Under the pieces are notes generated by a model. That model was not told the origin of the DNA. It made no database searches and saw only the letters and a program-made list of their open reading frames with translations. The translations under genes were made by a program, and so were the position numbers. A stretch of DNA of 52,197 nt from Clostridia bacterium (GTDB lineage: Bacteria; Bacillota; Clostridia; Oscillospirales; CAG-272), in contig JAFYHA010000020.1 in assembly GCA_017539425.1 (NCBI GenBank), positions 1 through 52,197 of the forward strand, in the 5' to 3' direction. Shown piece after piece: positions 26,866 to 44,124 of the stretch (positions are counted from its first letter, which is position 1; the number at the start of each line of letters is the position of its first letter).

Positions 26866-27360
26866 TTACATGGCTTGTGAAGCGGTGCTGCGGCTGCGCC
26901 GGACAGGGCGTCTGACCGTAGGACGGTCACCTGCGCTGTCATCCAGGTAGGCAATGATATCAGATAATCCCTCGCCGGTCACCGAGCTGACCTTGAAGAT
27001 CTTCTTGCATCCGGCTTCCCGTAACCAGTTTTCGGTCATGGGAATGTTGGCATCCGGCTTGTCGATCCCGGTGAGGATTCCGATGACTTCCCGGTTGCAC
27101 ATACAGGTGATATTGGGAGGGAAGAGCGTGAACGGTTCATCTGCACTGCACAGGATCCCGACCACATCCGCCTCGTAGGTGTACAAGGCCAGAGCGGCGC
27201 CAAGTCCGCGGGTCTGCAGGTATTCGCCCGGCGTGTCAATGATCGTATCGGTATAGGAGATGTACTGTGTCTTGCAATAGGACAGTTGTTCTCCCTTGAG
27301 AGCCTGCATCAGGGTCGTCTTGCCGGCGCCTACGCGTCCGGCAAGGATCAGCCTGCGCAT
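26866..27360 (-). CDS. EutP/PduV family microcompartment GTPase
   Basis: GRVGAGKTTL, KTQ, IDTPGEY, VSSVTGEG. Confidence 0.92.
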   Translation of the reverse strand: MRRLILAGRVGAGKTTLMQALKGEQLSYCKTQYISYTDTIIDTPGEYLQTRGLGAALALYTYEADVVGILCSADEPFTLFPPNITCMCNREVIGILTGIDKPDANIPMTENWLREAGCKKIFKVSSVTGEGLSDIIAYLDDSAGDRPTVRRPVRRSRSTASQAM

Positions 27361-27364
27361 GGGA

Positions 27365-27739
27365 CTATGTCCTCGTCAGCGGGCAGACCGTAAACCCAAG
27401 CGTGTCCCGCACGTATGTGCAGATGGCCTGGAAGGAGGCTTCTACCTGGGAAACCGTTCCGGTCAGGATCAGCGTGCCGCTGAAACGGTCTACAAAGCCG
27501 AGCTCCGCGCCTGAGGATTTAAGCGCGATATCCGCAATGATGACGGCTGTCTCGGCCGGACTGATCGTCATGACACCGATCGCCGCCTTTGAATATTCAA
27601 CTTGAGGGTCCAGACCGAGTTTATAGTACAAAATCGGGTCCGGATTCGCGACAATGTGCGCCAGTGTGATCTGCCGTCCGGGAACCAGTTCCTGGACAAT
27701 ACGCATCTTGTCATGAAGGGCGATTGGATCTTCACTCAT
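27365..27739 (-). CDS. BMC shell protein, permuted PduU/EutS type
   Basis: RIVQELVPGRQITLAH, AIGVMTISPAE, FVDRFSGTL. Confidence 0.92.
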   Translation of the reverse strand: MSEDPIALHDKMRIVQELVPGRQITLAHIVANPDPILYYKLGLDPQVEYSKAAIGVMTISPAETAVIIADIALKSSGAELGFVDRFSGTLILTGTVSQVEASFQAICTYVRDTLGFTVCPLTRT

Positions 27740-27759: not shown

Positions 27760-28305
27760 CTACAGATTGTCCCACAGTTCTTCGTGCGGGGCTGGAATGA
27801 CCGTATAATTGTTCAGCATGCTCTGTTCCTGAGCGTGCTTGGCACCCGCCTCTACGGCGGCGGTGACGTCTCCGACATCCCCGGTGACCAGGACGATGCC
27901 CTTGCCGCCCATGCCTCTGGAGAGCCGGAGCTCATAGATGGCGACCTTTGCGGTCTTGACGGCAATATCTGCGGCTTTGACGATGCTGGCGGCACTGTAG
28001 GTCTCGATGATGCCAAGACTCCCTTTGCGCTCGGGCGCGACCGTTCCGTACAGGGCGGTGATGACCTGAGGGTCGATCCGGCCCATCAGGGACACGTCGA
28101 CAAGGGTGGACGCAAAGCGTTCCTTGACATGCTCTTCGGCAGCGGTTACATCTGCGATGGAACCGGTCAGCATGATCTCAAACTTGCCCGGACAGACCGG
28201 ATGCGCCGAGACCAGACGGACTCCTGCGCTCTTCAGCGCAGCATCCGTAGCTTCTATGCCCGCAGCAATGCTTTTCAATTCAATTACGCCTACGGCTTGG
28301 TACAT
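27760..28305 (-). CDS. Tandem-domain BMC shell protein, PduT-like (BMC-T)
   Basis: Two BMC domains; CPGKF motif carrying the Fe-S-ligating Cys of PduT; GMGGKG. Confidence 0.9.
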   Translation of the reverse strand: MYQAVGVIELKSIAAGIEATDAALKSAGVRLVSAHPVCPGKFEIMLTGSIADVTAAEEHVKERFASTLVDVSLMGRIDPQVITALYGTVAPERKGSLGIIETYSAASIVKAADIAVKTAKVAIYELRLSRGMGGKGIVLVTGDVGDVTAAVEAGAKHAQEQSMLNNYTVIPAPHEELWDNL

Positions 28306-28329: not shown

Positions 28330-29664
28330 TTAGTTTTCGATGATGATCTTCGTCGGATCGACGAAGATGACCTTCCCGTCGATGGTTGCGTGCTGCGGTA
28401 TGGACAGCCCGGTTCCCGGATCGGCGATCCGCTGGCCTTTGGTCACGTGGTCTCCCACACTGACACAAGGCACACTCGGTGCGCCGATATGAGGATTCAT
28501 ACGGATTTCCACATGGTTTGTGGGCTGCAGTTCCGGCACATAGGTCGGGGTCTTGTCGTATTTGCGGATGCCAAGGCTTTCCATCCACTTGACGGAGTGA
28601 ACCCGCGTCAGGGGACGGTCTTCGGCAATGGTATAGGTTTTGCCCTCCGGAGCGGAGAAGCGGATATGGTCTTTGGCTAGAATGGCTTTGTGCTTGGCAA
28701 TCACGGCTCTTGGCGAAATGTACTGGCAGCAGGCCAGGATCTCGCAGACGCCGCAGGAGGAGCACAGGGAAGCGGTCTTGATCAGTTCGGGCTGATCCTC
28801 TCCCAGTGCGCTGGCCGCCACACGCACATGTTTGTGCGGTTCCAGCGGGTAACCCAGATTGAATCTCGGGCACAGGTCCGTGCAGCGGGTGCACTGGCAG
28901 CACACCGAGGAAGCAATGGCCAGATGGGCTTCCGGTTTGCGCTGCTTGACCATTACGGCGGGAGTGTTCTCGGGAATGATGATCAGCGACTTGGTCGTTT
29001 TGGTCACGATGTGGGTGTTCGGATTGACGATACGGCCCATGGAAGGCCCGCCGTCCAGTACGGCGTCGCCTTCAGGTACGCGGATACCCAGGTGGCTGAA
29101 CAGGTCGGACACGCGCATACCGATTGGAGCCTTGACAACGACAGGATTATCGATATCGCCGTTGATGGTCAGGTTTTTTTCGGTCAGAACGGTTCCGCAG
29201 ACCACGGCGTTGCGGATGTTGAAGATCGTCTCCAGATTGAAGACGATCACACCCTGCGTGATCGGCAGCTGTCCGGGCTGGACCAGCCGGCCGGTCGTTT
29301 CATAGATGAGAGCGATCTCATCACCCATCGGGTAAACGTTCGGAAGTTGCTTGACCGTGATGTCCGGTGCCAGTTCCTGACCTTCGGACAGCCCGAGTTT
29401 TATGCAATTGTGTTTTTTTATGCCGATCAGGCAACGCTTCATACCTACGGCCCGCATCACGATGGTGGCGCCCTCCACGACAAGCGGAAGATAGGCACTC
29501 ATCAGCGAGTAGTCCGTGTAGAGCATAGGCTCGCATTCCGCACCGTTGATGACCAGCGTATCCGCTCCTTCTGCCAACTTGGCAAAGGAAGGGAAGCCGG
29601 CGCCGCCGGCGCCCACGATGCCTGCGGTCTGCATGACCTGCTTCAATTCTTCAAATGTAGTCAA
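28330..29664 (-). CDS. PduS-like/RnfC-like flavoprotein with SLBB and 4Fe-4S domains
   Basis: GIVGAGGAGFP, INGAECEP, YPMGDE, GGPSMG, CCQCTRCTDLCP, CSSCGVCE, HIGAPS; TTG start after AAGGAG. Confidence 0.9.
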   Translation of the reverse strand: MTTFEELKQVMQTAGIVGAGGAGFPSFAKLAEGADTLVINGAECEPMLYTDYSLMSAYLPLVVEGATIVMRAVGMKRCLIGIKKHNCIKLGLSEGQELAPDITVKQLPNVYPMGDEIALIYETTGRLVQPGQLPITQGVIVFNLETIFNIRNAVVCGTVLTEKNLTINGDIDNPVVVKAPIGMRVSDLFSHLGIRVPEGDAVLDGGPSMGRIVNPNTHIVTKTTKSLIIIPENTPAVMVKQRKPEAHLAIASSVCCQCTRCTDLCPRFNLGYPLEPHKHVRVAASALGEDQPELIKTASLCSSCGVCEILACCQYISPRAVIAKHKAILAKDHIRFSAPEGKTYTIAEDRPLTRVHSVKWMESLGIRKYDKTPTYVPELQPTNHVEIRMNPHIGAPSVPCVSVGDHVTKGQRIADPGTGLSIPQHATIDGKVIFVDPTKIIIEN

Positions 29665-29717: not shown

Positions 29718-29990
29718 TTATTCGTTCGTGTAATCGATGATACCGACGATCGCGGCATCTGCGGGGATCTCGTTGCCCTCACGATCCTTGGGCAAAGCCA
29801 CACGGGCTGAACTGCCGGTCGTGATCAGGACGGTTTCACCGATACCTGCGCCCACCGCGTCTATGGCGATCATATATTTGTCCGTTTCCTTACCGTTTTC
29901 AATGATATGGACCTGCATGAACTTGGATCCGAGCAGGCTCTCACACTTGCGGGTGGATACGACATTGCCGATGACTTTTGCAACTAACAT
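29718..29990 (-). CDS. BMC vertex pentamer, EutN/CcmL family (BMC-P)
   Basis: AKVIGNVVSTRK, AIDAVGAGIGE.VL..TGSSAR, DAAIVGIID. Confidence 0.95.
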   Translation of the reverse strand: MLVAKVIGNVVSTRKCESLLGSKFMQVHIIENGKETDKYMIAIDAVGAGIGETVLITTGSSARVALPKDREGNEIPADAAIVGIIDYTNE

Positions 29991-30011: not shown

Positions 30012-30683
30012 CTATTTCGCGACGGTTACGCGGCTTCCGTTGCCGATGCCTGCGGCATTGGCGTCATCCGTATCCACGTGCATTTCCAGACGAAATTTGT
30101 CGCTGACGCGGATCTGGACGTCATACCAGAGCGTGTGCTTGGTGCCGACGACATCGACGTTGATGTAGTCTCCGTCCTTTACGCCGAAACGGGCGGCGTC
30201 CTCGGGAGACATATGGATATGACGGTTGGCAATGATGCAGCCCTCGTCGAGCTGGACAATGCCTTTCGGACCGACGATAGTGATCGGGGCGGATCCGGAG
30301 AGTTTGCCGGATTCACGCACCGGAGGTTTGACTTTCAGGACATAGGAATCCGTCACCGAGATCTCGACCTGGGACTGCTTACGCAGCGGGCCGAGTACGC
30401 GGACCCCTTCAATGGGCCGCATGGAGGGACCGATCAGGGTCAGGGTTTCCTTGCAGGCGAACTGACCGGGTTGGGACAGGTCCTTGATCGGGGTGAGGGA
30501 ATAGCCTTTTCCGAACAGAATATCGACATGCTCCTGAGTGAGGTGAATATGCCGGTTGGATACGCCGATCGGAATGGACATGTCAGCGGTTGCAGCCGCA
30601 CCTGCGGAAGAACCGGACGGAGCCATTTCGGCAAGCGCGCGTTTGACCATTTCGGCTATCTGTTCACTGGTATAGGATGCCAT
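30012..30683 (-). CDS. pduL: Phosphate acyltransferase PduL with N-terminal encapsulation peptide
   Basis: GVSNRHIHL, LSQPGQFA, RVLGP.R, RHIHMS, MHVDTDDANA; N-terminal SEQIAEMVKRALAEM; start ATG 30683. Confidence 0.93.
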   Translation of the reverse strand: MASYTSEQIAEMVKRALAEMAPSGSSAGAAATADMSIPIGVSNRHIHLTQEHVDILFGKGYSLTPIKDLSQPGQFACKETLTLIGPSMRPIEGVRVLGPLRKQSQVEISVTDSYVLKVKPPVRESGKLSGSAPITIVGPKGIVQLDEGCIIANRHIHMSPEDAARFGVKDGDYINVDVVGTKHTLWYDVQIRVSDKFRLEMHVDTDDANAAGIGNGSRVTVAK

Positions 30684-30915
30684 GATGAAAGTTCCTTTCT
30701 TGTCCGCAGGGAATTGCGGAACCGAATCTATAGAATCGCCTTGCGGCGGTGCATTCAAAGTAAGGCAGCGTACGGAATGCTGCAGGACAGAGTTGAATCG
30801 TCCGGGAAGTTTTTTAAGCCCGACCGATGAGATGGCCCGGGACCATCCCATCGGTGGTGATACTCAGGGAGTATCGGGTTGTTGAGCGCTCAAATATCAG
30901 TTACGGAAAATCCGA

Positions 30916-31188
30916 TTAACCAATCTTCGGCAGAATCTTCTCAACATCAGAGTGCGGTCTCGGAATGACATGTGTCGCAATGACTTCGCCAAGGCGGGCA
31001 GCAGCAGCGCCACCAGCTTCGACAGCGGCCTTCACAGCACCGACATCACCGCGGACCATAACGCTGACCAATCCGGAACCGATCTTCTCGGAACCGATCA
31101 GGACAACGTTCGCAGCCTTTACCATAGCATCGGCAGCTTCGATCGCAGCAACAAGACCTCTGGTTTCAACCATACCAAGTGCTTCCAT
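30916..31188 (-). CDS. BMC hexamer shell protein, PduA/EutM type
   Basis: [42 protein letters not shown]. Confidence 0.96.
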
Positions 31189-31290
31189 TTGAGTATTCCT
31201 CCTGTTTAGAATGACTAGAGTAATGTTTTCCGCCTGTGGCGGAAGGGTTTGCCGCCCGGCAGTTGTGGAAGGGCGGCTCTATCATGATCC

Positions 31291-31578
31291 TCAGGCCTTT
31301 TTGACCGGCTTGAGGAATTTCATGACTTCGGGGTGGGGACGGGCAATGACTTCGCCCAGTTTGACCTTACCCACTTTGGCCGCTTCCGCCTTGCCGGCAT
31401 CCAGGGATGCCTGGCAAGCGGAAACAGTTCCTTCAACAACAACCGTGACCAGTCGTCCGCCCAAACGCTTTTCACAGCGAATGAACGTTACGTCCGCGGC
31501 TTTGCACATGGCGTCCAATGCAGCGATTGCGGCGACCATAGCCTGGACTTCCAGTAACGCGATTGCTTTTTCTTCCAT
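31291..31578 (-). CDS. BMC hexamer shell protein (divergent)
   Basis: AIALLEV..MVAAIAALDAMCKAADV, KRLGGRLVT, VIARPH. Confidence 0.9.
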   Translation of the reverse strand: MEEKAIALLEVQAMVAAIAALDAMCKAADVTFIRCEKRLGGRLVTVVVEGTVSACQASLDAGKAEAAKVGKVKLGEVIARPHPEVMKFLKPVKKA

Positions 31579-31605
31579 GTTGAATGTCTTCCTTTATTGT
31601 GTCAA

Positions 31606-31881
31606 TTATTTGATCACGGGCAGGATCTTTTCAACATCGTCGTGCGGTCTCGGGATGACATGCGTAGCAATGACTTCTCCGAGGCGGGCAGCAGCGGCAC
31701 CACCGGCTTCAACGGCGGACTTGACAGCACCGACGTCGCCGCGGACCATTACGCTGACCAGACCGGAACCGATCTTCTCAGAGCCGATCAATCTGACGTT
31801 TGCAGCCTTTACCATAGCATCGGCAGCTTCGATCGCTGCGACAAGGCCTCTGGTTTCAACCATTCCAAGAGCTTCTAACAT
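31606..31881 (-). CDS. BMC hexamer shell protein, PduA/EutM type (close paralog of 30916-31188)
   Basis: Same motifs as the 30916 copy; only a few residues differ. Confidence 0.96.
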
Positions 31882-31944
31882 AGTTTTGTTCTCCTTTTAA
31901 AAATAGGCATTGTTTTTTGTTTTTCTTGTATTGGATAAGTCCGG

Positions 31945-32262
31945 TCAGATGGTGCTGTTCCGACCCAAGGCGTTGAGCCGGGCAAACCATTCAATCTCTT
32001 CGGATTGACGCGGAATTATTTTGTGGGTGATGTACATCCCTCTCTTTTTGGCTTCGTCTACGCCCGCCATCGTGGCGGCTTCCACGGAGGCCACGTCGCC
32101 TTCAATCTTGACGACCATCACAAGCGGAACCTCACACTTTTCGGCGTTGGCCGGCTTGTTCTTATCGATGGCCACGATCTCAACGGGAGCGGTCTTCGCG
32201 GCTTTGTCGGCGACCACTATGGAAGTTACGAACCCGAAGCATTCAATCATGCCGAGTGCCAT
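31945..32262 (-). CDS. BMC hexamer shell protein (divergent, with pore-loop insertion)
   Basis: ALGMIECFG....ADKAAKTA.V, EGDVASV, IIPR; extra DKNKPANAEKCEVP loop. Confidence 0.85.
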   Translation of the reverse strand: MALGMIECFGFVTSIVVADKAAKTAPVEIVAIDKNKPANAEKCEVPLVMVVKIEGDVASVEAATMAGVDEAKKRGMYITHKIIPRQSEEIEWFARLNALGRNSTI

Positions 32263-32278: not shown

Positions 32279-33484
32279 TCAGCCGGGGATGTAGCAGACT
32301 TTGATGCCCTGCTGCGCCACGTTGACTTCGCAGGCTTCGTTCATCTTGTCGAGCGGGAAGGTGTGGGTGATCAGATCTTCGATCGGAATGTTCATTTCCT
32401 TGCACTGACGCAGGAAAGCCATCGTTACGGGGTAATCCTCTGCGGAGTAAGCCCAGGAACCGATCAGGTTGATCTCCTTGTTGCACATGGCAAAGTGCGG
32501 GTTGACCTGGTAGTCGCCGTTGTTCACGAAGAAGCCCATCTCGCACATGCCGCCGCCGCGACGGATGAAATCATAGATGTCGGCAGCTGCTGCAGGAGCA
32601 CCGGTGCACTGGTAAGCAAAATCCGCGCCTGCACCGTCCGTCAGACCCTGGACAATGGCTACGCGCTCTTTCTTGTCCGTGATCTCGCGGAAGTTGATCG
32701 TGGTCTTGGCACCCAGCTTCTTGGCCATTTCCAAACGCTTGGGCGAGCCGTCGATCGCGATGACGTGGTTGATGCCTGCCGCGCGAAGCACGGAGCACAT
32801 CATCAGGCCTACCGGGCCGCAGCCCTGAAGGACGACCTTACTGTTGAAATTCAGCAAGCCGGTCTTCTGTCCGCGGAGCAGAGCATGCACGCACACGCAG
32901 GCCACTTCCAGGAGCATTCTCTGGTTCAGATTCAGGTCGTTGACCACGAAATACGTGGAACCCGGATCCCGGATGAGAATGTATTCGGCGAACCATCCGC
33001 GGAACGGATTGCTCGGATCGATCGGGACAAGCCCGTAAATGCCCTGATTCCAGCACAGGTTTTTCTGGCCGGGGTGGTTGCGGCAGATAAAGCAGTTGTC
33101 GCAGCTGATGACCGAAGTGACCAACTTGTCTCCGACCTTGATCGGATGACCTGCCGTATCTTCCTTGATGTTCTTGCCGAGGTAGACAATCTCACCGGTG
33201 CCTTCATGTCCGAGGACAAGCGGGCACAGACCGAAGGGGTCGCCTTTCCATTCATGGACATCGGTACCGCAGACGCCGCAGCCTTCGACTTTGACGAGGA
33301 TGTCATTGTCGGTCAGCTCAGGCATCGGGAACTCTTTGACCACGAACTTTTTCGGTTCTGCCAGGACCGCGGCCTTTGCGGATTTCGGAATCGCGCAGCA
33401 GGCAGTGGATCCTGTTGAGGAGGTGGACAGTTCGCTCAGGATCTTGCGAACGACCTCTTCAACTTGAGAAGCTGAAACGTCCAT
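32279..33484 (-). CDS. Zn-dependent (MDR family) alcohol dehydrogenase with N-terminal encapsulation peptide
   Basis: GVCGTDVH, LGHEGTG, CDNCFIC......NLC, GCGPVG; N-terminal SQVEEVVRKILSEL. Confidence 0.92.
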   Translation of the reverse strand: MDVSASQVEEVVRKILSELSTSSTGSTACCAIPKSAKAAVLAEPKKFVVKEFPMPELTDNDILVKVEGCGVCGTDVHEWKGDPFGLCPLVLGHEGTGEIVYLGKNIKEDTAGHPIKVGDKLVTSVISCDNCFICRNHPGQKNLCWNQGIYGLVPIDPSNPFRGWFAEYILIRDPGSTYFVVNDLNLNQRMLLEVACVCVHALLRGQKTGLLNFNSKVVLQGCGPVGLMMCSVLRAAGINHVIAIDGSPKRLEMAKKLGAKTTINFREITDKKERVAIVQGLTDGAGADFAYQCTGAPAAAADIYDFIRRGGGMCEMGFFVNNGDYQVNPHFAMCNKEINLIGSWAYSAEDYPVTMAFLRQCKEMNIPIEDLITHTFPLDKMNEACEVNVAQQGIKVCYIPG

Positions 33485-33508: not shown

Positions 33509-34963
33509 TCAAACGATGCGGAAGTTGTCCACCATCACGCAGCGGCGGGAGCGGGTGAAGCTCTTGCCGGAGGTCAGGCCCTCACCGGTCGGCCCGGCGA
33601 TGGTAAAGGTGGTATGACCTTCGCCTCCGAAGCCGATGCCGGCATAGGAAGGCGCGTTCTTGACAAAGATGGTGGTTTCCACCGCACGCGCGAACCGGGT
33701 CAGGTTGTCGATGTTCTTGGAATGCATATGCGCGGTGTGGCGGTTGCCGTGCTCAGCCTTGACAGCCAGGTCAATGGCTTCGTCGATGTTCTGCACACGG
33801 ACGATGCCCAGGATCGGCATCATCAACTCGGTCTGCACGAACGGGTGCTCAAACGGAACCTCCGCGATAGCGCAGCGGATCTCGTCACCCACATGGATGC
33901 CGATCTTCTCGAGCAGGACCTTCGCGTCGCGGCCTACGCAGTCGCGGCTGACAGCACATTTGACCTTGCCGTCCTTGTCGGTGGTCTTGTTGATGACCAC
34001 ATCCGCAAGACGGTCGGCCTGTTCACGGGTCAGCAGGTAGCAGCCGTTCTGGAGCATGTATTTGATCAGGTCGTCCGCGATGTTGGCAAACGCGAACACT
34101 TCCTTCTCGGCGATGCAGGGCAGGTTGTTGTCGAAGGTGCATCCGTCGATGATATCCTTGGCCGCTTTCTTGATGTCGGCGGTATCGTCCACGATGACGG
34201 GCGGGTTGCCGGCGCCGGCGCCGATGGCCTTCTTGCCGGAACTCAGCACGGATTTGACAACGCCCGGGCCGCCGGTGCAGACCAGCAGACGGATCAGCGG
34301 GCTCTTGTACATGATCTGGGCCGTGTCCAGGGTGGGCTTGACGACGGAGGCGACCAGGATGGGCGGTCCGCCTGCAGCCGCGCTGGCGCGGTTGACCAGG
34401 TCGACGGCATAGTTGGATGTGGCGATGGCGTTGGGATGCGGATTGAAGACCACACCGTTGCCGGCCACGATCATGCCGATGCTGTTGCAGATGACGGTTT
34501 CAGACGGGTTTGTAGAGGGAGCGATCGCGCCGACCACGCCGAACGGGGCCATTTCCGTAAGCGTGAGACCGTGATCGCCGGTCTTGACCGTCGGAGTGAT
34601 GTCCTCGGTCCCCGGCGTCTTGTCCGCGATCAGGTTGTGCTTGGCGATCTTGTGATCCACGCGGCCCATCTTGGTTTCGGCGACACCCAGAGCCGCCATG
34701 GTCGGCGCCTCCAGTCTTGTCAGGCGACGGATCTCAGTAATGATTTTCTCCCGATTGGCCAGGGACATCGAACGCACGGCCTTGTAGCCTTCGTTGGCGG
34801 CCGCGATGGCGTCGTTCATATCCTCGAAGATACCGATCAGCTTGCGCCCGTTGTACTGGGTTGCATCCCAGTTGGCCGCGGGCTGAGCGGGAGTGTTCTT
34901 CATCTGGGCCAAAACATTTTGTACGATCTCATTGATCTGAGCGTCTGTCCAGTTAATAGCCAT
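33509..34963 (-). CDS. Acylating aldehyde dehydrogenase (EutE/PduP family) with N-terminal encapsulation peptide
   Basis: PSTNPSET, TGGPGVV, GAGAGNPP, FDNNLPCIAEKE, ELMMP, GPTGEG; N-terminal DAQINEIVQNVLAQM. Confidence 0.95.
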   Translation of the reverse strand: MAINWTDAQINEIVQNVLAQMKNTPAQPAANWDATQYNGRKLIGIFEDMNDAIAAANEGYKAVRSMSLANREKIITEIRRLTRLEAPTMAALGVAETKMGRVDHKIAKHNLIADKTPGTEDITPTVKTGDHGLTLTEMAPFGVVGAIAPSTNPSETVICNSIGMIVAGNGVVFNPHPNAIATSNYAVDLVNRASAAAGGPPILVASVVKPTLDTAQIMYKSPLIRLLVCTGGPGVVKSVLSSGKKAIGAGAGNPPVIVDDTADIKKAAKDIIDGCTFDNNLPCIAEKEVFAFANIADDLIKYMLQNGCYLLTREQADRLADVVINKTTDKDGKVKCAVSRDCVGRDAKVLLEKIGIHVGDEIRCAIAEVPFEHPFVQTELMMPILGIVRVQNIDEAIDLAVKAEHGNRHTAHMHSKNIDNLTRFARAVETTIFVKNAPSYAGIGFGGEGHTTFTIAGPTGEGLTSGKSFTRSRRCVMVDNFRIV

Positions 34964-35007: not shown

Positions 35008-35745
35008 TTAGTTTTCGTAAAGTTGAGCCAGAACCTTTGCGGTCACTTCATCTACCGTTTTCTGGTTCTCGGGACTGAGTTTCACTTCGGCGGGCGTTGA
35101 GGCCTTCGGGGAAGTGCAGCAACAGCCGGATTTGGTGGCCGGTGCAGCGGCGGCTCCGGAACGAAGGGCATCCAAGGCGGCCCCTACCGCATTCATACGG
35201 CAGTAGTACTCGCAGGCGTCGATGTTGTCGAACGCATTGTCCAGCGTGTCGGCTACGGCGAAAGCACTGTTGCCGCCGAACAGGAATGCGCAGTGATCTT
35301 TGAGAACGCTGCGGAAGGTGTCGTCGGCTGTGTTGGAAGTCTTGTCATAGGAACCGGCTGGGATCACGCCCAGATAAACCCGGTTCTCCGGAAGAACACA
35401 GTTGTCCACGGCTACGCCCTTGATGGCATATGCGGTCGCCACATTGGGCTGTGCATGGATGATGGCGCGGATGTCCGGGCGCAGGCTGTACATCAGGATG
35501 TGCAGCTTGGCTTCGGAGGTCGGTTCGTAAATGCCCGATCCGATCTTTTTGCCGTTGGCATCCACTTTCACGATCATGTCGCGGGTCAGGCGGTATTTGC
35601 AGACGCCGCGGGGCGTGACCAGATACTCGTTGTCGCTCAGCTTGTAGGAAATGTTTCCGTGCTTGGCGGCAACCAGCTGTTTCGCGTAAAGCCGGTGGGC
35701 GGCCTCGACCATTTGATCTCGGATTTGATATTCGGATACGATCAT
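35008..35745 (-). CDS. Class II aldolase/adducin paralog lacking two Zn ligands (probable pseudoenzyme) with C-terminal encapsulation peptide
   Basis: GNIS, TP.GV.K and PTSE are kept, but HAH becomes HAQ and NHG becomes GNS; C-terminal TVDEVTAKVLAQL. Confidence 0.8.
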   Translation of the reverse strand: MIVSEYQIRDQMVEAAHRLYAKQLVAAKHGNISYKLSDNEYLVTPRGVCKYRLTRDMIVKVDANGKKIGSGIYEPTSEAKLHILMYSLRPDIRAIIHAQPNVATAYAIKGVAVDNCVLPENRVYLGVIPAGSYDKTSNTADDTFRSVLKDHCAFLFGGNSAFAVADTLDNAFDNIDACEYYCRMNAVGAALDALRSGAAAAPATKSGCCCTSPKASTPAEVKLSPENQKTVDEVTAKVLAQLYEN

Positions 35746-35791
35746 CTGTCGGTTGCATGTCCGCTAAGGGAAATGCAAGCCCCCTTTCTAA

Positions 35792-36655
35792 TTATTTGTA
35801 AAGCTCGGCCATGACTTTTGCCGTTACCGCATCGATGAACGCGGCGTTAGATTCTGTCTTGGCTGAAATTGGATGTTCAATGGAAACGTCCTTGAAATCC
35901 GAAGCGCCCGGCTCTTCCATCTTCTTGTTGGCCAGAGGCTCGATGTTCTGTTTGCAGCGGCAATTCTCCGTGCCCAGATTCTTGCATTTGGAGCAGCCGG
36001 GATGACGGCCTGGAACATTGAACTTCTTGCGGAGTTCCATCAGCTTCTCCAACTCTTCGCAGGACAGTTCTTTTTCCCCGCCGAGCTGACGGGCCATCAG
36101 GGTGATCTTGGCATAGAACTCCAGCGTTTCCATGTTGAAATACGCTTTCATCAGCGTGTTGCCGACGGTCAGCGCGCCGTGGTTGGCCAGAAGGAACGCG
36201 TCGTGGTCCTGAATGTAGGGCATCAGGGAGTTCGGGATCTCGTCCGTGGACGGCGTTCCGTACGCGCAGGTCGGAACGGATCCCAGGAACAGGGAAGCTT
36301 CGGCCATCGTGTATTTGTCCAGCGGCACGTGGGCCACGGCGAACGCGGTGGCCGTAGGCGGATGGGCGTGCACAACGGCGCGTACGTCTTCGCGCTCGGC
36401 ATAGACTTTCAGATGCACCTTGAATTCGGAGGAGGGATTGTACGGGCTGGATTCCAGCTTATTGCCGTTTGCATCCACGCGGAGGATCATATCCGGGGTC
36501 ATAAACCCTTTGGATACGCCGGTAGGGGTGCAGTAGAATTCGTTCGGGCCGACCTTGACGGAAATGTTGCCGTCATTGGCCGCGACAAAACCGTTCTGGT
36601 ATACGCGGCGGCCGATCTCGCAGATTTCTTTTTTAATTTCAAATGCAGATGGCAT
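35792..36655 (-). CDS. Class II aldolase (L-fuculose-1-phosphate aldolase-like) with C-terminal encapsulation peptide
   Basis: NDGNIS, TPTGVSK, PSSE, VHAHP, LANHGA; C-terminal FIDAVTAKVMAEL. Confidence 0.92.
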   Translation of the reverse strand: MPSAFEIKKEICEIGRRVYQNGFVAANDGNISVKVGPNEFYCTPTGVSKGFMTPDMILRVDANGNKLESSPYNPSSEFKVHLKVYAEREDVRAVVHAHPPTATAFAVAHVPLDKYTMAEASLFLGSVPTCAYGTPSTDEIPNSLMPYIQDHDAFLLANHGALTVGNTLMKAYFNMETLEFYAKITLMARQLGGEKELSCEELEKLMELRKKFNVPGRHPGCSKCKNLGTENCRCKQNIEPLANKKMEEPGASDFKDVSIEHPISAKTESNAAFIDAVTAKVMAELYK

Positions 36656-36676: not shown

Positions 36677-37870
36677 TTATTTGACCAGATTGAGGGTGTC
36701 CAGGGCGATCATCAGTTCCTCGTCGGTCGGGATGACCAGGGTGCGGACCTTTGCGTCCGGAGCGGAGATGTCCACGTTCTCGCCGCGCGGGCAGGACATA
36801 TTGAAATCCTCGTCAATGGAGATGCCCAGATAATCCATATCGCGGCAGACCGCGGCGCGGAAGGCACGGTCGTTCTCGCCGATGCCGGCGGTGAAGAGCA
36901 CGATGTCCACTCCGTTCATTTCCGCAATATACGATCCGATGATCTTCTTGGCGTCCTGGACCAGGACGTCCAGGGCCAGCTTGGCGCGTTCGTTCCCGGC
37001 GTCGGCGGCCGCCCACACGTCTCGCATGTCGCTGGACACGCCGGACAGGCCGAGCAGACCGGATTTCTTGTTGAGAACGTCGTCCATCTGGTCGGGGGTC
37101 AGGTTTTCCTGTTTCATCAAGTAGGTCACGATGGTGGGATCAATGGAGCCGCACCGTGTGCCCATGGGAAGACCTTCCTGCGGAGTCAAGCCCATCGCGG
37201 TATTGATGACCTTGCCGTGATCCACGGCGGTGATGGAAGAACCGTTGCCGCAGTGGCAGGTGATGATCAGGAGCTGTTCCAGAGGAACGCGGACGAATTC
37301 GGCGGCTTTGTGAGCCACATATCTGTGGGAGGTTCCGTGGAACCCGTATCTGCGGACCTGATATTTTTCGTAGTACTCGTAGGGCAGGGCGTAGATGTAG
37401 GATTTCTCCGGCATCGTGCTGTGGAACGAGGTATCAAACACAGTCACCATGGGCTTGCCCGGCATTGCCTTGCGGCAGGCGTTGATGCCCTTGATGGCGG
37501 GCGGGCCGTGAAGCGGGTTGATGCCCACGATGGATTCCAGATAGCGGAGGACCGAATCCGTAACGATCATGGATTCCTGGAGCTTGCCGCCGTGTGCTAC
37601 GCGGTGTCCGACCGCGTCGATCTCGTCGACGCTCTTGATCACGCCCAGATTGCTGTCCGTCAGGAGCTTGAGCACCAGCGCGATGGCATCGTCATGATCC
37701 TTGAGCTCGATTTCGGACTTGTAATCGTCCTTGCCGGGGCGCTTGTGCGTGACGGCGCCTCCGATTCCAATCTTTTCGCAAAGCCCTTTCGCGATGACCT
37801 TGTTCTCGTCCATATCGAACAACTGATATTTCAGGGACGAGCTTCCGGCATTGACTACCAGGATTTTCAT
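36677..37870 (-). CDS. ackA: Acetate/propionate kinase (first gene of the BMC operon)
   Basis: MKILVVNAGSSSLKY, GHRVAHGG, PLH, FDTSFH, RRYGFHGTSH, MGTRCG, FTAGIGEN, PTDEE. Confidence 0.95.
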   Translation of the reverse strand: MKILVVNAGSSSLKYQLFDMDENKVIAKGLCEKIGIGGAVTHKRPGKDDYKSEIELKDHDDAIALVLKLLTDSNLGVIKSVDEIDAVGHRVAHGGKLQESMIVTDSVLRYLESIVGINPLHGPPAIKGINACRKAMPGKPMVTVFDTSFHSTMPEKSYIYALPYEYYEKYQVRRYGFHGTSHRYVAHKAAEFVRVPLEQLLIITCHCGNGSSITAVDHGKVINTAMGLTPQEGLPMGTRCGSIDPTIVTYLMKQENLTPDQMDDVLNKKSGLLGLSGVSSDMRDVWAAADAGNERAKLALDVLVQDAKKIIGSYIAEMNGVDIVLFTAGIGENDRAFRAAVCRDMDYLGISIDEDFNMSCPRGENVDISAPDAKVRTLVIPTDEELMIALDTLNLVK

Positions 37871-37944
37871 CAAAAACCTCCAATAAAGAGTGAAATTCTA
37901 ACCTCGAACCGGCAAACCTGCGGAGTGCCGCTTTTACCATGTCT

Positions 37945-41304: not shown

Positions 41305-43947
41305 TCAGGCCTCGAGAATGGAAATGTCCGGAACGGTCAGACTGGCCTTTGTGCCGTCGGCACGGGTGAAGTCCCGCGTGATCTCCGACCCGGAGTCATT
41401 GAGGATCAGCAGCTTGCCGTTCCGTCTGGCCACAAAAACCTTGTCCAGTTTCCCGTCCGCCACGTAGACACCGTGTCCGGCGAGGAAGCCTGTGATCGGA
41501 TCGAAGACGGTTGCCTGTGTTTCACGGATCTGTTCGGGCGTACTGGCTTCCATACGGTAGTTGGAAGACGTCCCCGTCTCGGATACTTTTCCGCCTACGG
41601 TTCCGCCCACGAGGATGGAGGAGACCGTACGGTCAGGCCCGAACCATTTCGCCAGGTAATCCGTGTGCGTGTCCAGGTCATACAGCTCGGTCAGGTTGAT
41701 CCCGACCAGCAGGCCGCCTGCATTCGCGAACCGGTCTATGGCCTGCATCGTGGAGGTCTTGTACGGACCGCCTACCGGAATGAAGAGTGCGCGGATGCCG
41801 TCCAGAAGACCGTCCGCAATCGTCTGGTCACAGGCATAGAGATAGTCCGTATAGTCGCGGAGCACGGTGAACGCCGCATACATGGCACCCTGCCGGCGCA
41901 TGTCCAGCATCATCGGGGTATCCGGATACAGAACGCCGATATCCCTCTCAATTCCGCCCTCCTGGAGAAAGTGCACGTTTTCGGCGAAACGCATGGCCCG
42001 CTCTTCGCTGCCCATGATGTTCGCCCCGTAGTAATGCAGGGACTTGGCTCCGGTCGCGGCTGCGTTGTACACGCGGACGACCAGCCCCCGTTCGGTGACC
42101 TGCCCGGCAGGCTCAAAGCTGAACAGCCCATTGTAGAACGTGGAAGCGCTTGCCACCCAGTTGGTGACCGCAAAGTTGAATGCGTAATTGGAAGCTTCGT
42201 TGGTGATGCGTACACCTCCGCCGACCGCCGCAGAGATCTTGCACTGCTGTGCGAACTCGGAGGCGTGCCACGGCACGGCGTCTCCGCCCGTGCACAGGTA
42301 CAGTTCGGTCGCGGGGAAGTATTTGCGGGCGGTCTGCATCCAGAACGAGGCATAGTCGGTCATGGATTTGCGGTACCAGTCGATAAAGTCGATCCAGCGG
42401 CGGCTCTGCGCGTCATCTTTGGGGACATAGCTGCCCGGACCGTTGCATTCATCCACACGGAACTCCGCGTGGGTAATGTCCAGTGGAGGGTAGGTCACGG
42501 CGCCGAAAGACGGGAAGTCGGTCCCCCAGCAGGCATTGAGCGCAGACAGGTCTCCGTTGAACTTTTCCCCGGCCCACCTGCGGAAATCGGCGCGGGCAAA
42601 ACGGTCTCCGCACCAGTAGCCTCCATGGGAATGGTAGACTCCAGGAATGGCCATGGGCCAGTTTCCGTGCGCCACGCTGACGATGGCTTCACCGAAATCC
42701 CCGCTGATCCCGAAGAGCAGTCCCTCAAAGATATCCGTGTCGCGGTAATGGTCCGCGAAAGCTTTCAGGAAGCGTTCGACCCAGGTGTAGAAGTGTTTGT
42801 CCCAGAATGTCTGGATCCGGCTCTCCGTGCCGTGCTCGCAGCAGACCAGGCCTTCGAAATCGCGGGATGCGCGGTACCAGTCCGGAAGGGAATAGGCCGG
42901 ACCCGCGATGATGAACGGAAGCCAGCGGAGCCCCGCTTCCCGGATGATCCGGACCTGTTCGTCCCAGTGGGAGAAGTCCCATTGGCCTTCGCCCGCGTTT
43001 TCGCAGGACTCCCAGGTAACGTACTGCTCCACCGAGGTAACGCCCATATTCTTGAGATGCTTGAGCGTCTTAAGGTCCGCACCTCCGATGCCGATGCACA
43101 GCTCCTGCCCGTCCGGAATGCGAACGCGCATAGCGTCCAGCTTTTCGGAAAACGGATCCGCTTTGGGCGCCGGAGCCGGCTTGGCCTTTTCTTCCGGCTT
43201 GGACTCTACGACAAGATCCCGGGCGCAGCGGAAACCGACGGACGCATTCGTCCCGCCGCCCAAAATGGTCCGGCGTCTGGCGACCCGGAGGTCCTTGGCG
43301 ATCGAATGATAGCAGCCTCCGCGGCAGACCTTGCTTCCCCCCCAGCCGTCCGAGAAGGAACTGGTGTCGTGCTTCTTGTCCGCATAGGAAAAGAACCAGT
43401 CCTGCACCCATTCGTACACGTTGCCGGACATATCGTACAAACCGAACGCGTTGGGAGGATATGAGCCTACCGGGGACGTGTATTTGTATCCGTCGTTGAA
43501 CTGGGCGTCATGCCAGGGCAGATCGCTGTTGCGGTCCGCAAAATTGGCCTGGGTGCCGTCCGGGACGCTGTCGCCCCAGGAATAGACCGTTCCGCTCTTT
43601 CCTCCCGCAGCGGCATATTCCCACTCTTCTTCAGTCGGCAGACGCTTGCCCCGGAAGGCCGCGTAGGCGGCTGCGGTGCCCCAGTCCACGTTGATGACCG
43701 GGTAGTCCGGGTAATCCAGAAAATAGTTGGGCATATCCGGCCATCTCGGGTTTGCGGGATACCCGCGGTGCGTCGCGTCGCAGAACTCTTTGAATTCCCG
43801 GTTGGTTACGGGGTATTCGTCCATGTAGAACGGGGACACGGTGATCTCGTGTACGGGCTTCTCTTCGGGGTAGCCGTGTTCGCTGCCCATCCGGTATGTA
43901 CCTCCGGGGATCAGCTTCATGCGATCCGGAATCTTAGAGTCGGCCAT
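41305..43947 (-). CDS. Fusion of an FGE-sulfatase (SUMF1-like) domain with a GH14/GH42-like glycoside hydrolase
   Basis: IPGGTYRMGS, PVTN.EF, RLPTEEEWEYAA, NAFGLYDMSGNVYEWV, GFRCA; then GVTSVEQYVTWESCE..EGQWDFS, LPDWY, LNACWGT.F.SF; no signal peptide; start ATG 43947. Confidence 0.8.
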   Translation of the reverse strand: MADSKIPDRMKLIPGGTYRMGSEHGYPEEKPVHEITVSPFYMDEYPVTNREFKEFCDATHRGYPANPRWPDMPNYFLDYPDYPVINVDWGTAAAYAAFRGKRLPTEEEWEYAAAGGKSGTVYSWGDSVPDGTQANFADRNSDLPWHDAQFNDGYKYTSPVGSYPPNAFGLYDMSGNVYEWVQDWFFSYADKKHDTSSFSDGWGGSKVCRGGCYHSIAKDLRVARRRTILGGGTNASVGFRCARDLVVESKPEEKAKPAPAPKADPFSEKLDAMRVRIPDGQELCIGIGGADLKTLKHLKNMGVTSVEQYVTWESCENAGEGQWDFSHWDEQVRIIREAGLRWLPFIIAGPAYSLPDWYRASRDFEGLVCCEHGTESRIQTFWDKHFYTWVERFLKAFADHYRDTDIFEGLLFGISGDFGEAIVSVAHGNWPMAIPGVYHSHGGYWCGDRFARADFRRWAGEKFNGDLSALNACWGTDFPSFGAVTYPPLDITHAEFRVDECNGPGSYVPKDDAQSRRWIDFIDWYRKSMTDYASFWMQTARKYFPATELYLCTGGDAVPWHASEFAQQCKISAAVGGGVRITNEASNYAFNFAVTNWVASASTFYNGLFSFEPAGQVTERGLVVRVYNAAATGAKSLHYYGANIMGSEERAMRFAENVHFLQEGGIERDIGVLYPDTPMMLDMRRQGAMYAAFTVLRDYTDYLYACDQTIADGLLDGIRALFIPVGGPYKTSTMQAIDRFANAGGLLVGINLTELYDLDTHTDYLAKWFGPDRTVSSILVGGTVGGKVSETGTSSNYRMEASTPEQIRETQATVFDPITGFLAGHGVYVADGKLDKVFVARRNGKLLILNDSGSEITRDFTRADGTKASLTVPDISILEA

Positions 43948-44124
43948 AGGAGGATCCTCCTCATAGTATGGTTTTCGGCCCAGGGGCCACTTGCATTGTA
44001 ACATGCGGCAAACGGGATTGGCAATATGGAAAGCAGAGTTTGCGAAAAAAGTCCAACCCCTTGACAGTAGAATGATTAAACGTAATAATGTTGTTGTAAA
44101 AAGTTTTCAGGAGGTTGATCATCT

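Follow-up and report, generated by a model that had tools for sequence, protein, structure and literature searches.

Background

PVM and PVM-like bacterial microcompartments (BMCs), which break down fucose and rhamnose in bacteria of the gut and rumen, are generally depicted with just one signature aldolase. The accessible parts of the published accounts (PMC4207490, PMC8156839) treat one aldolase as the signature enzyme and mention no degenerate paralogue, and in the accessible part of another account, 21 of 23 BMC-associated class II aldolases carry a C-terminal peptide of ~17 residues after an unconserved linker of 23–81 residues (PMC4594438). Here we describe an operon of this type in a Clostridia bacterium (GTDB lineage Clostridia; Oscillospirales; CAG-272), on contig JAFYHA010000020.1 of assembly GCA_017539425.1; the whole 52,197-nucleotide stretch is called the window below. 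The operon holds two adjacent genes of the class II aldolase fold—Ald1, with an intact metal site, and Ald2, in which that site is remodelled.

Judged by its conservation, Ald2 is a zinc-site-remodelled aldolase paralogue, a functional protein with a new job rather than a dying gene copy. As to that job, we give a probability of roughly one half to the reading that Ald2 is an encapsulated accessory protein: a subfamily tied to PVM-like microcompartments, with the Zn-binding triad remodelled to His / Gln / variable, would be targeted to the organelle as cargo by its C-terminal helix, and its old active site would still bind a phosphorylated ligand—DHAP (dihydroxyacetone phosphate, the aldolase product) or the ketose-1-phosphate substrate—without Zn-dependent aldol cleavage and independently of any fixed partnership with Ald1. 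In open full text we found no description of a His-triad-less aldolase paralogue in microcompartments, although two PF00596 genes may be listed for some loci in the tables of PMC4207490 and PMC8217296.

Results and discussion

An old paralogue with two metal ligands replaced

The cores of Ald1 and Ald2 align with 71/189 identities (BLASTP, 38%, E 4e-47, residues 3–191 against 4–191), and both proteins match the Pfam family PF00596, Ald1 at 173.1 bits and Ald2 at 109.3 bits (residues 11–184; cut-off 22.2). A preliminary description of this DNA had the paralogues aligning throughout, which holds for this core but not for the linkers between core and tail, which are unalignable. The motifs that it quoted are all present, within the stretches PSSE, VVHAHP and LANHGA in Ald1; HGNIS, PTSE, IIHAQP and FGGNSA in Ald2, whose open reading frame (ORF) is intact, and its central observation, the loss of two of three His ligands, is borne out: the aligned second His is Gln99 and the third Asn159, with the first His kept. 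The alignment to Escherichia coli FucA that it called for gives the same picture, with Gly-Asn, Ser-Glu and the first His kept and the equivalents of His94 and His155 absent from Ald2; we take these FucA numbers to be those of the lost ligand positions, in agreement with the phmmer alignment offsets. Such a site makes only canonical Zn-dependent aldol chemistry unlikely, which is less than the inactivity suggested in the preliminary description: His-Gln-Glu together with Asn or Asp could still bind a harder metal, or catalysis in the pocket could be metal-free.

The replacement is a property of a protein family. Searching 5.8 billion clustered proteins with Ald2 gave 89 matches, the first 55 of which (46–100% identical, mostly 223 residues long) all read His-x-Gln. 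At the third His position these 55 homologues have N (6), T (31), M (15), G (1), S (1) or a gap (1), and every one of them keeps Gly-Asn, Glu, the first His and a helix-like C-terminal tail; the complete His triad is found in the remaining 34. A HMMER search over 1.84 billion representatives recovered 5023 class II aldolase relatives at E up to 1e-3, the closest to Ald2 being P0035 (53% identical, from the Lachnospiraceae group) and P0090 (44%), with the other top ranks at 39% or less. P0090 represents a cluster of 41 members, and of the members examined, all 12 that cover the region have KHGN / TSE / H-Q-D and carry the tail. The signature KHGN…TSE…HxQ is invariant in the clade. Its proteins are currently named 'L-fuculose-phosphate aldolase' or 'class II aldolase/adducin family protein' in databases, and the KHGN…HxQ signature lets annotators tell them from true aldolases.

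In a maximum-likelihood tree of 64 sequences, a quick search with no root inferred, all Ald2-type rows and P0090 (18 rows) form one side of a branch with SH-aLRT support of 99, on a stem of 0.98 changes per site, and their neighbours are Firmicute BMC-type aldolases, including Ald1. Because all these rows share one long-stemmed branch, the duplication must be old and a single event. The preliminary description had called the pair tandemly duplicated; as a recent local event this does not hold, since the Ald2 clade sits on its long stem, is shared with Lachnospiraceae and is unlinked to copy 1 there, and the term describes present gene order in this genome rather than gene history. Two further tail-bearing clusters have lost the triad independently of the Ald2 clade: P0092 (5 members, of which the 4 covering the region agree) reads H-Y-N with Gly-Ser for Gly-Asn and branches within the Ald1 clade of Lachnospiraceae, where an intact member is 71% identical to it, and P0110 (3 members, all in agreement) reads Y-Y-F with Gly-Ser and is placed near the Ald1 of the window clade.

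That Ald2 is an ordinary Zn-dependent ketose-1-phosphate aldolase, for instance for a second deoxy-sugar, is very improbable. Glu, first His, phosphate site and fold are indeed kept, and one Lachnospiraceae locus (in genome G347) carries two intact triad-bearing (HHH) aldolases with encapsulation peptides (EPs), but two of three metal ligands are replaced in every member of the Ald2 clade, and HHH is kept in 129 of 152 aligned representative rows, the exceptions inspected being the Ald2 clade, P0092, P0110 and short fragments. The two HHH aldolases of G347 lie 4.5 kb apart (L029, G347:C55, 1902–2720 and 6462–7277), and a second copy in a BMC locus therefore need not be degenerate.

Purifying selection on Ald2

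Across the window and its two syntenic relatives (L001 and L002), the ratio of nonsynonymous to synonymous change (dN/dS, Nei–Gojobori) is 0.07–0.18 for Ald2, 0.04–0.14 for Ald1 and 0.02–0.20 for other operon genes, values that are rough, with dS of at least 1. Among Lachnospiraceae, Ald2 gives 0.027–0.094 with a median of 0.056 (34 of 120 pairs, those with pS < 0.7), and unsaturated pairs (dS 0.31–0.84) give 0.03–0.09. Mean column conservation is 0.78 both for the Ald2 clade (26 sequences) and for BMC-type active aldolases (22 sequences). Ald2 is thus under strong purifying selection. The preliminary description had named dN/dS and distribution as checks and had allowed that copy 2 might be unique to this genome and evolving neutrally; instead, the degenerate copy is conserved, at 0.03–0.18 overall, in a clade that is rare in general but spread well beyond this genome.

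These data refute the idea of a decaying duplicate heading for loss. Ald2 does score lower than copy 1 against Pfam (109 against 173 bits) and has no clear Shine-Dalgarno sequence just upstream of its ATG, but its ORF is intact in the window and at all 18 other loci at which it was found, dN/dS is 0.03–0.18, and the signature residues are invariant across three subclades.

A pocket that keeps its phosphate site and base

In the class II aldolase fold, according to the accessible part of PMC6079011, the metal binds the DHAP enediolate as a Lewis acid, and the metal-coordinating Glu is displaced and acts as acid/base. We compared the Ald2 clade with active BMC aldolases at positions at least 90% conserved in each group. 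G30-N31, T44-P45-x-G47, S77-E78, H82, H97-A98 and P100, among others, are identical in both, whereas fixed differences (Ald2/active) are K28/N, H29/D, Q99/H and K135/T and, further, L53/M, T76/S, G158/N and S160/G; Ald2 thus has Lys-His at 28–29 where active BMC aldolases have Asn-Asp before Gly-Asn. Within the Ald2 clade, E78, G30-N31, T44/G47 and T76-S77 are invariant, and constraint is lost at the third His position. Gly-Asn, Thr-Gly and Ser-Ser presumably form the phosphate site in FucA, and these roles agree with the titles of FucA mutant structures among the Foldseek matches (T26A, Del27, N29Q, S71Q, E73Q). In the Ald2 pocket the phosphate site and the base would accordingly be retained, while two metal ligands and one Asp are gone and two or three basic side chains are new, as expected for an anionic ligand that is still bound without Zn. 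Of the three roles put forward in the preliminary description—hetero-oligomer subunit, cargo scaffold and sugar-phosphate binder—the last fits best, with the phosphate-site residues, the Glu and the first His invariant and new basic residues fixed beside them.

Predicted structure agrees with the family assignment. The AlphaFold2 (AF2) model of Ald2 has a mean predicted local distance difference test score (pLDDT) of 80, mostly above 90 in the core and low (<50) at loop 114–123 and linker 199–223, and Foldseek places FucA, AraD and YgbL at the top (E ~1e-13, probability 1.00). Ald2 reaches none of the NCBIfam equivalog cut-offs, its best score being 72.9 bits against 250 (OxoTetrPhDc) and its scores with FucA models 39–57 against 250–400; Ald1 likewise falls below every one. 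Ald2 as donor of a trans-acting Tyr (FucA Tyr113) was considered and dropped, with pLDDT below 50 for loop 114–123 and a column unconserved even in active BMC aldolases.

The same pocket also suits a neofunctionalised enzyme, and we entertain, as the main though tentative alternative, that Ald2 turns over a phosphorylated substrate in the BMC lumen, either metal-free or with a harder metal. In the metal-free variant Glu78 would be the base and His97, His29 and Lys28 the electrophiles, as in triosephosphate isomerase or methylglyoxal synthase acting on DHAP, a comparison that is by analogy only; in the other variant, Mn, Fe or Mg would be held by His97, Gln99, Glu78 and Asn/Asp159. Conservation of the old active site matches that of the active paralogues, with new invariant Lys and His residues, dN/dS is very low (0.03–0.09), and the gene is retained in G002, a genome whose BMC locus lacks copy 1. 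SPU microcompartments, which release triose phosphate, are described in the accessible part of PMC11585597 as encapsulating a triosephosphate isomerase that bears an EP of its own, which is a precedent for the processing of DHAP within a BMC, and members of this fold use Mn or Fe besides Zn (accessible part of PMC6079011; pyruvic oxime dioxygenase). Set against this, no PDB match of this fold lacks the His triad apart from non-catalytic adducin, and the third ligand position is unconserved (T, M, S or G in Lachnospiraceae). We know of no enzyme of the class II aldolase fold without the triad, adducin aside. Taken to the level of the clade, KHGN..TSE..HxQ proteins might have a new metal-free or hard-metal activity on DHAP or ketose phosphate released in aldolase-type microcompartments, alongside repeated His-triad-less targeted paralogues (P0092, P0110), a possibility that we hold to be rather doubtful; if true, BMC aldolases would repeatedly spawn targeted triad-less paralogues, a general and undescribed class of accessory cargo.

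Distribution and link to microcompartment loci

The operon of the window runs acetate kinase, Ald1, Ald2, aldehyde dehydrogenase, Zn-type alcohol dehydrogenase, four BMC-H, PduL, EutN, PduS/RnfC-like protein, BMC-T, a BMC-domain protein, PduV and a ParA-like ATPase. BMC-H, BMC-T and BMC-P genes thus stand together with a class II aldolase, an aldehyde dehydrogenase and PduL, and we call the locus PVM-like by the description in the accessible parts of PMC4207490 and PMC8156839 rather than by their classifier; no glycyl radical enzyme was found among those large ORFs of the window that were annotated.

A pattern scan of one genome per species (185,579 species) found 18 Ald2 loci. Two of these (L001 and L002), one in a rumen 'Ruminococcus sp.' metagenome-assembled genome (MAG) and one in a Clostridia MAG from goat rumen, share synteny with the window over the whole span between acetate kinase and PduV, and in both Ald2 adjoins Ald1. 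The other 16 come from Lachnospiraceae MAGs (Acetatifactor, Faecalimonas, Roseburia and others), and at all 16 no operon gene other than Ald2 was found in the flanking DNA, which was fetched for up to 8 kb per side, or less where the contig ended sooner. These solitary genes have no conserved neighbour, no flanking ORF family occurring at more than 4 of the 16 loci, and in the fully annotated L016 the neighbours are unrelated.

The genomes with a solitary Ald2 nonetheless encode shell proteins: BMC-domain genes (PF00936) were found in 5/5 tested and EutN (PF03319) in 9 of 11 others, and a BMC-type aldolase (at least 170 bits in a frame of 269–292 residues) in 3/5 and 9/11, respectively. Where a Lachnospiraceae locus was fetched, its order is BMC, PduV, Ald1, HbpS-like (PF03928), aldehyde dehydrogenase, Zn-type alcohol dehydrogenase, four BMC-H, PduL, EutN, PduS, BMC-T. 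In G004 and G210 the BMC locus is cut by a contig end; in G207 no EutN was found and the high-scoring aldolase is only 25% identical to Ald1; in G208 there is no EutN match and an Ald1-type gene lies near the contig start. The Faecalimonas genome G002 is informative in another way: its syntenic PVM-like locus (L020, G002:C46, 8076–12718; PduO-type adenosyltransferase, BMC, PduV, HbpS-like, aldehyde dehydrogenase and onward) runs directly from PduV to the HbpS-like gene without Ald1, and the assembly (1.9 Mb) has a single PF00596 match, the Ald2 homologue, which lies on that contig at a distance of 80 kb.

Beyond these holders Ald2 is scarce. In 200 sampled genomes of the window's order the best match outside its own genome is 38% identical, and in 200 further Lachnospiraceae it is 45%, although 66 of the latter have an aldolase match at E 1e-25 or better. 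No degenerate second aldolase was found in other Lachnospiraceae, 12 aldolase ORFs in 11 stretches and those of L023 and L027 all being HHH. The Ald2 clade is therefore rare and narrowly distributed and co-occurs with the same type of BMC locus, a co-occurrence to which no statistics are attached, the holders being close kin.

This distribution bears on the suggestion that Ald2 is an obligate hetero-oligomer subunit or cargo scaffold with no ligand function of its own, forming mixed tetramers with Ald1 or cross-linking cargo through its tail. We regard this as unlikely, though several observations speak for it: in the window clade the two genes adjoin and their co-transcription is plausible, enzymes with this fold form tetramers (accessible parts of PMC6079011 and PMC12599920), natural fusions of an intact and a degenerate domain are common (27/30 homologues of at least 350 residues), and on at least two further, independent occasions the triad has disappeared from a lineage of EP-bearing aldolases (P0092, P0110). 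Yet Ald2 is unlinked to copy 1 at 16/16 Lachnospiraceae loci and is present in G002, whose BMC locus has no copy 1, both of which point to its independence from copy 1; it bears a tail of its own, though it might also enter along with a stable partner; and its pocket is invariant, whereas the degenerate domains of the fusions have lost Asn, Glu and all His. The hetero-oligomer and scaffold roles of the preliminary description are correspondingly weakened by the unlinked genes, the syntenic locus without copy 1 and Ald2's own tail. A complex prediction for the Ald1 and Ald2 cores scored 0.01 against a mark of 0.32 with controls not run, which speaks neither for nor against binding.

The C-terminal tail

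Beyond its core Ald2 matches the layout of an encapsulation peptide, with a helix predicted at residues 225–244 after a poorly conserved linker of ~25–30 residues that is gapped and variable in the alignment; Ald1 has a Cys-rich linker and then a C-terminal helix. The two C-termini, …FIDAVTAKVMAELYK in Ald1 and …TVDEVTAKVLAQLYEN in Ald2, had been described as near-identical: the peptides are present and similar, and Ald2 does bear a tail like that of Ald1, but identity is 9 of 16 anchored positions. Within the window clade, Ald2 and Ald1 tails of the same genome share 9, 10 and 12 of 16 residues, against 5–8 of 16 between these Ald2 tails and those of Lachnospiraceae Ald2, and Lachnospiraceae Ald2 shares 5–8 of 16 with its own Ald1 tail. 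Recent gene conversion was rejected as the source of the likeness, since 5 of the 8 identical tail residues compared by eye between window Ald1 and Ald2 have different codons; the likeness has therefore been kept at the protein level.

The linkers themselves have features of interest. Those of active BMC-type aldolases share G-[KR]-H-P followed by at least four Cys in a C..C..CxxCxxC-like arrangement (window Ald1 linker at 35792–36100), the window-clade Ald2 linker retains nothing of this but a run of CCC, and in P0090 both GKHP and Cys are present; a metal or redox site in the 'unconserved' linker is possible.

Weighing the proposed role

Our preferred reading—an encapsulated accessory protein that would bind DHAP or a ketose-1-phosphate—has a number of points to answer. 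The case for ligand binding is made by conserved residues alone, and K28, H29 and K135 are placed around the pocket by their sequence position beside known phosphate-site residues rather than by distances. Since the old active site of a pseudoenzyme is usually under relaxed constraint, the conservation pattern would suit an enzyme no less than a binder. A stoichiometric DHAP binder would bring no obvious kinetic benefit, and a site for Mn, Fe or Mg could be built from Gln, Glu and His with the Asn of the window clade or the Asp of P0090. For the tail, amphipathic character was gauged by the hydrophobic moment, which for Ald2 is 1.29 against a shuffle mean of 0.73, the fraction of shuffles at or above the observed value being 0.076; across 12 tails this fraction is 0.056–0.36 and not significant, save for one Lachnospiraceae copy-1 tail (0.015). 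On the supporting side, contigs from four ruminant-gut metatranscriptome libraries (three studies) cover parts of Ald2 with 0–2 differences, one of them (35589–35905) bridging the gap between Ald2 and Ald1, but they are no proof of transcription. Finally, most of the genomes are incomplete MAGs, and presence and absence counts are soft.

A conserved, targeted paralogue without a Zn site would mean that the cargo list of aldolase-type microcompartments is incomplete, and DHAP or ketose phosphates might be handled or controlled in the organelle at a point so far overlooked; alternatively, Ald2 could stand for a bacterial pseudo-enzyme recruited into the organelle.

Operon and neighbouring genes

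The features of the window are collected in Table 1. Most of the operon's cargo appears to be individually targeted: the N-termini of the Zn-type alcohol dehydrogenase and the aldehyde dehydrogenase are the helix-like peptides MDVSASQVEEVVRKILSEL and MAINWTDAQINEIVQNVLAQM, and in PduL an N-terminal extension of ~93 residues precedes the PTAC domain. The gap of 46 bases between Ald1 and Ald2 (35746–35791) shows no evident Shine-Dalgarno sequence in the ~15 bases before Ald2 starts, whereas aldehyde dehydrogenase has AGGAG 8 bases upstream, and the level of Ald2 may lie below that of its neighbours.

Table 1. Position and assignment of Ald1, Ald2 and the surrounding operon genes in the window
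Feature	Position	Strand	Assignment or basis
Ald1 (copy 1)	35792–36655	-	287 residues; BMC-type class II aldolase, Glu and full His triad
Ald2 (copy 2)	35008–35745	-	245 residues; intact ORF; class II aldolase fold, remodelled metal site
Ald2 aldolase-fold core, residues 1–198	35152–35745	-	AF2 model, Foldseek
Ald2 codons Lys28-His29-Gly30-Asn31	35653–35664	-	Sequence; invariant in clade; type II divergence
Ald2 codons His97-Ala98-Gln99	35449–35457	-	Gln at second metal-ligand His; clade-invariant
Ald2 codon Asn159	35269–35271	-	Third metal-ligand His position; clade-variable (N, D, T, M, S, G)
Ald2 linker, residues 199–223, with Cys-Cys-Cys run	35077–35151	-	pLDDT <50; clade members not alignable here
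Ald2 C-terminal helix, residues 225–244, putative encapsulation peptide	35014–35073	-	AF2 prediction; Thr235 invariant
Acetate kinase, operon gene 1	36677–37873	-	PF00871, 468.8 bits
Aldehyde dehydrogenase, N-terminal EP-like extension	33509–34963	-	PF00171 and translation
Zn-type alcohol dehydrogenase, N-terminal EP-like extension	32279–33484	-	PF00107 and PF08240
Four BMC-H (31945–32262, 31606–31881, 31291–31578, 30916–31188)	30916–32262	-	PF00936
PduL	30012–30851	-	Domain annotation
EutN/BMC-P	29718–29990	-	Domain annotation
PduS/RnfC-like protein	28330–29664	-	Domain annotation
BMC-T	27760–28305	-	Domain annotation
Further BMC-domain protein	27365–27739	-	Domain annotation
PduV/EutP	26866–27360	-	Domain annotation

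Just beyond the ParA-like gene at the operon end lies a class II fructose/tagatose-bisphosphate aldolase (PF01116; 24978–25826, minus strand), and a second PF01116 aldolase (L024, 2975–3826) is found ~5 kb upstream of the BMC locus in one Lachnospiraceae genome; both are further DHAP-producing enzymes close to organelle genes. Elsewhere in the window, an ORF of 899 residues (41305–44004, minus strand) unusually combines an FGE-sulfatase domain (formylglycine-generating enzyme-like) with one resembling glycoside hydrolase family 14.

Comparison with known systems

The closest described relatives of Ald2 are the BMC-associated class II aldolases, with which it shares the fold, a sister position in the tree, the type of operon and a C-terminal helix after a poorly conserved linker. 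It departs from them in having His/Gln/variable for the His triad and Lys-His for Asn-Asp, and in often being solitary, away from the BMC locus. E. coli FucA (PDB 1fua and mutants) is similar in structure (Foldseek E ~3e-12, TM score 0.6–0.7; phmmer E 3.6e-8) and has the same Gly-Asn, Ser-Glu and first His, but identity is ~20%, Ald2 scores 39 bits with a FucA model whose cut-off is 400, and FucA has no targeting tail.

Loss of catalytic His with conservation of the protein has a counterpart in animals. The adducin head, as described in the accessible part of PMC12599920, is a non-catalytic tetramer of the class IIa aldolase fold that is conserved and functional, and the domain of Trichoplax adducin has changed at two of the three His positions and was modelled without a metal. 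Like Ald2, adducin has the aldolase fold with catalytic His lost; unlike Ald2, it is a eukaryotic protein-interaction module, for actin and Mud, whereas Ald2 is bacterial and free-standing and keeps the phosphate site and Glu, indeed the rest of the pocket, which adducin-type scaffolds do not require.

A pairing of intact and His-less domains also occurs within single bacterial chains. In the representative set, 27 of 30 homologues of at least 350 residues join an intact domain (Gly/Val-Asn, Glu, HHH) to a second aldolase-like domain with at most one of three His and mostly neither Asn nor Glu. Such fusions of ~425 residues are widespread in the window's order and elsewhere (P0098 with 34 members, P0127, P0140 and 24 more; also G080:C4:33971-35161 and G136:C2:469221-470420). 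They resemble Ald2 and Ald1 together, but in them the degenerate domain is part of a longer chain and lacks Asn, Glu and the His triad, whereas Ald2 is free-standing with its pocket kept.

Within microcompartments, the gamma-CA-like and RbcS-like domains of CcmM are non-catalytic enzyme homologues that organise carboxysome cargo. Ald2 is comparable as an enzyme-derived, non-canonical paralogue in a microcompartment and differs in fold and BMC class, and a scaffold role is not the reading that we prefer for it. Dead copies of the class II aldolase fold are thus common, and it is by its kept pocket that Ald2 stands apart from them.

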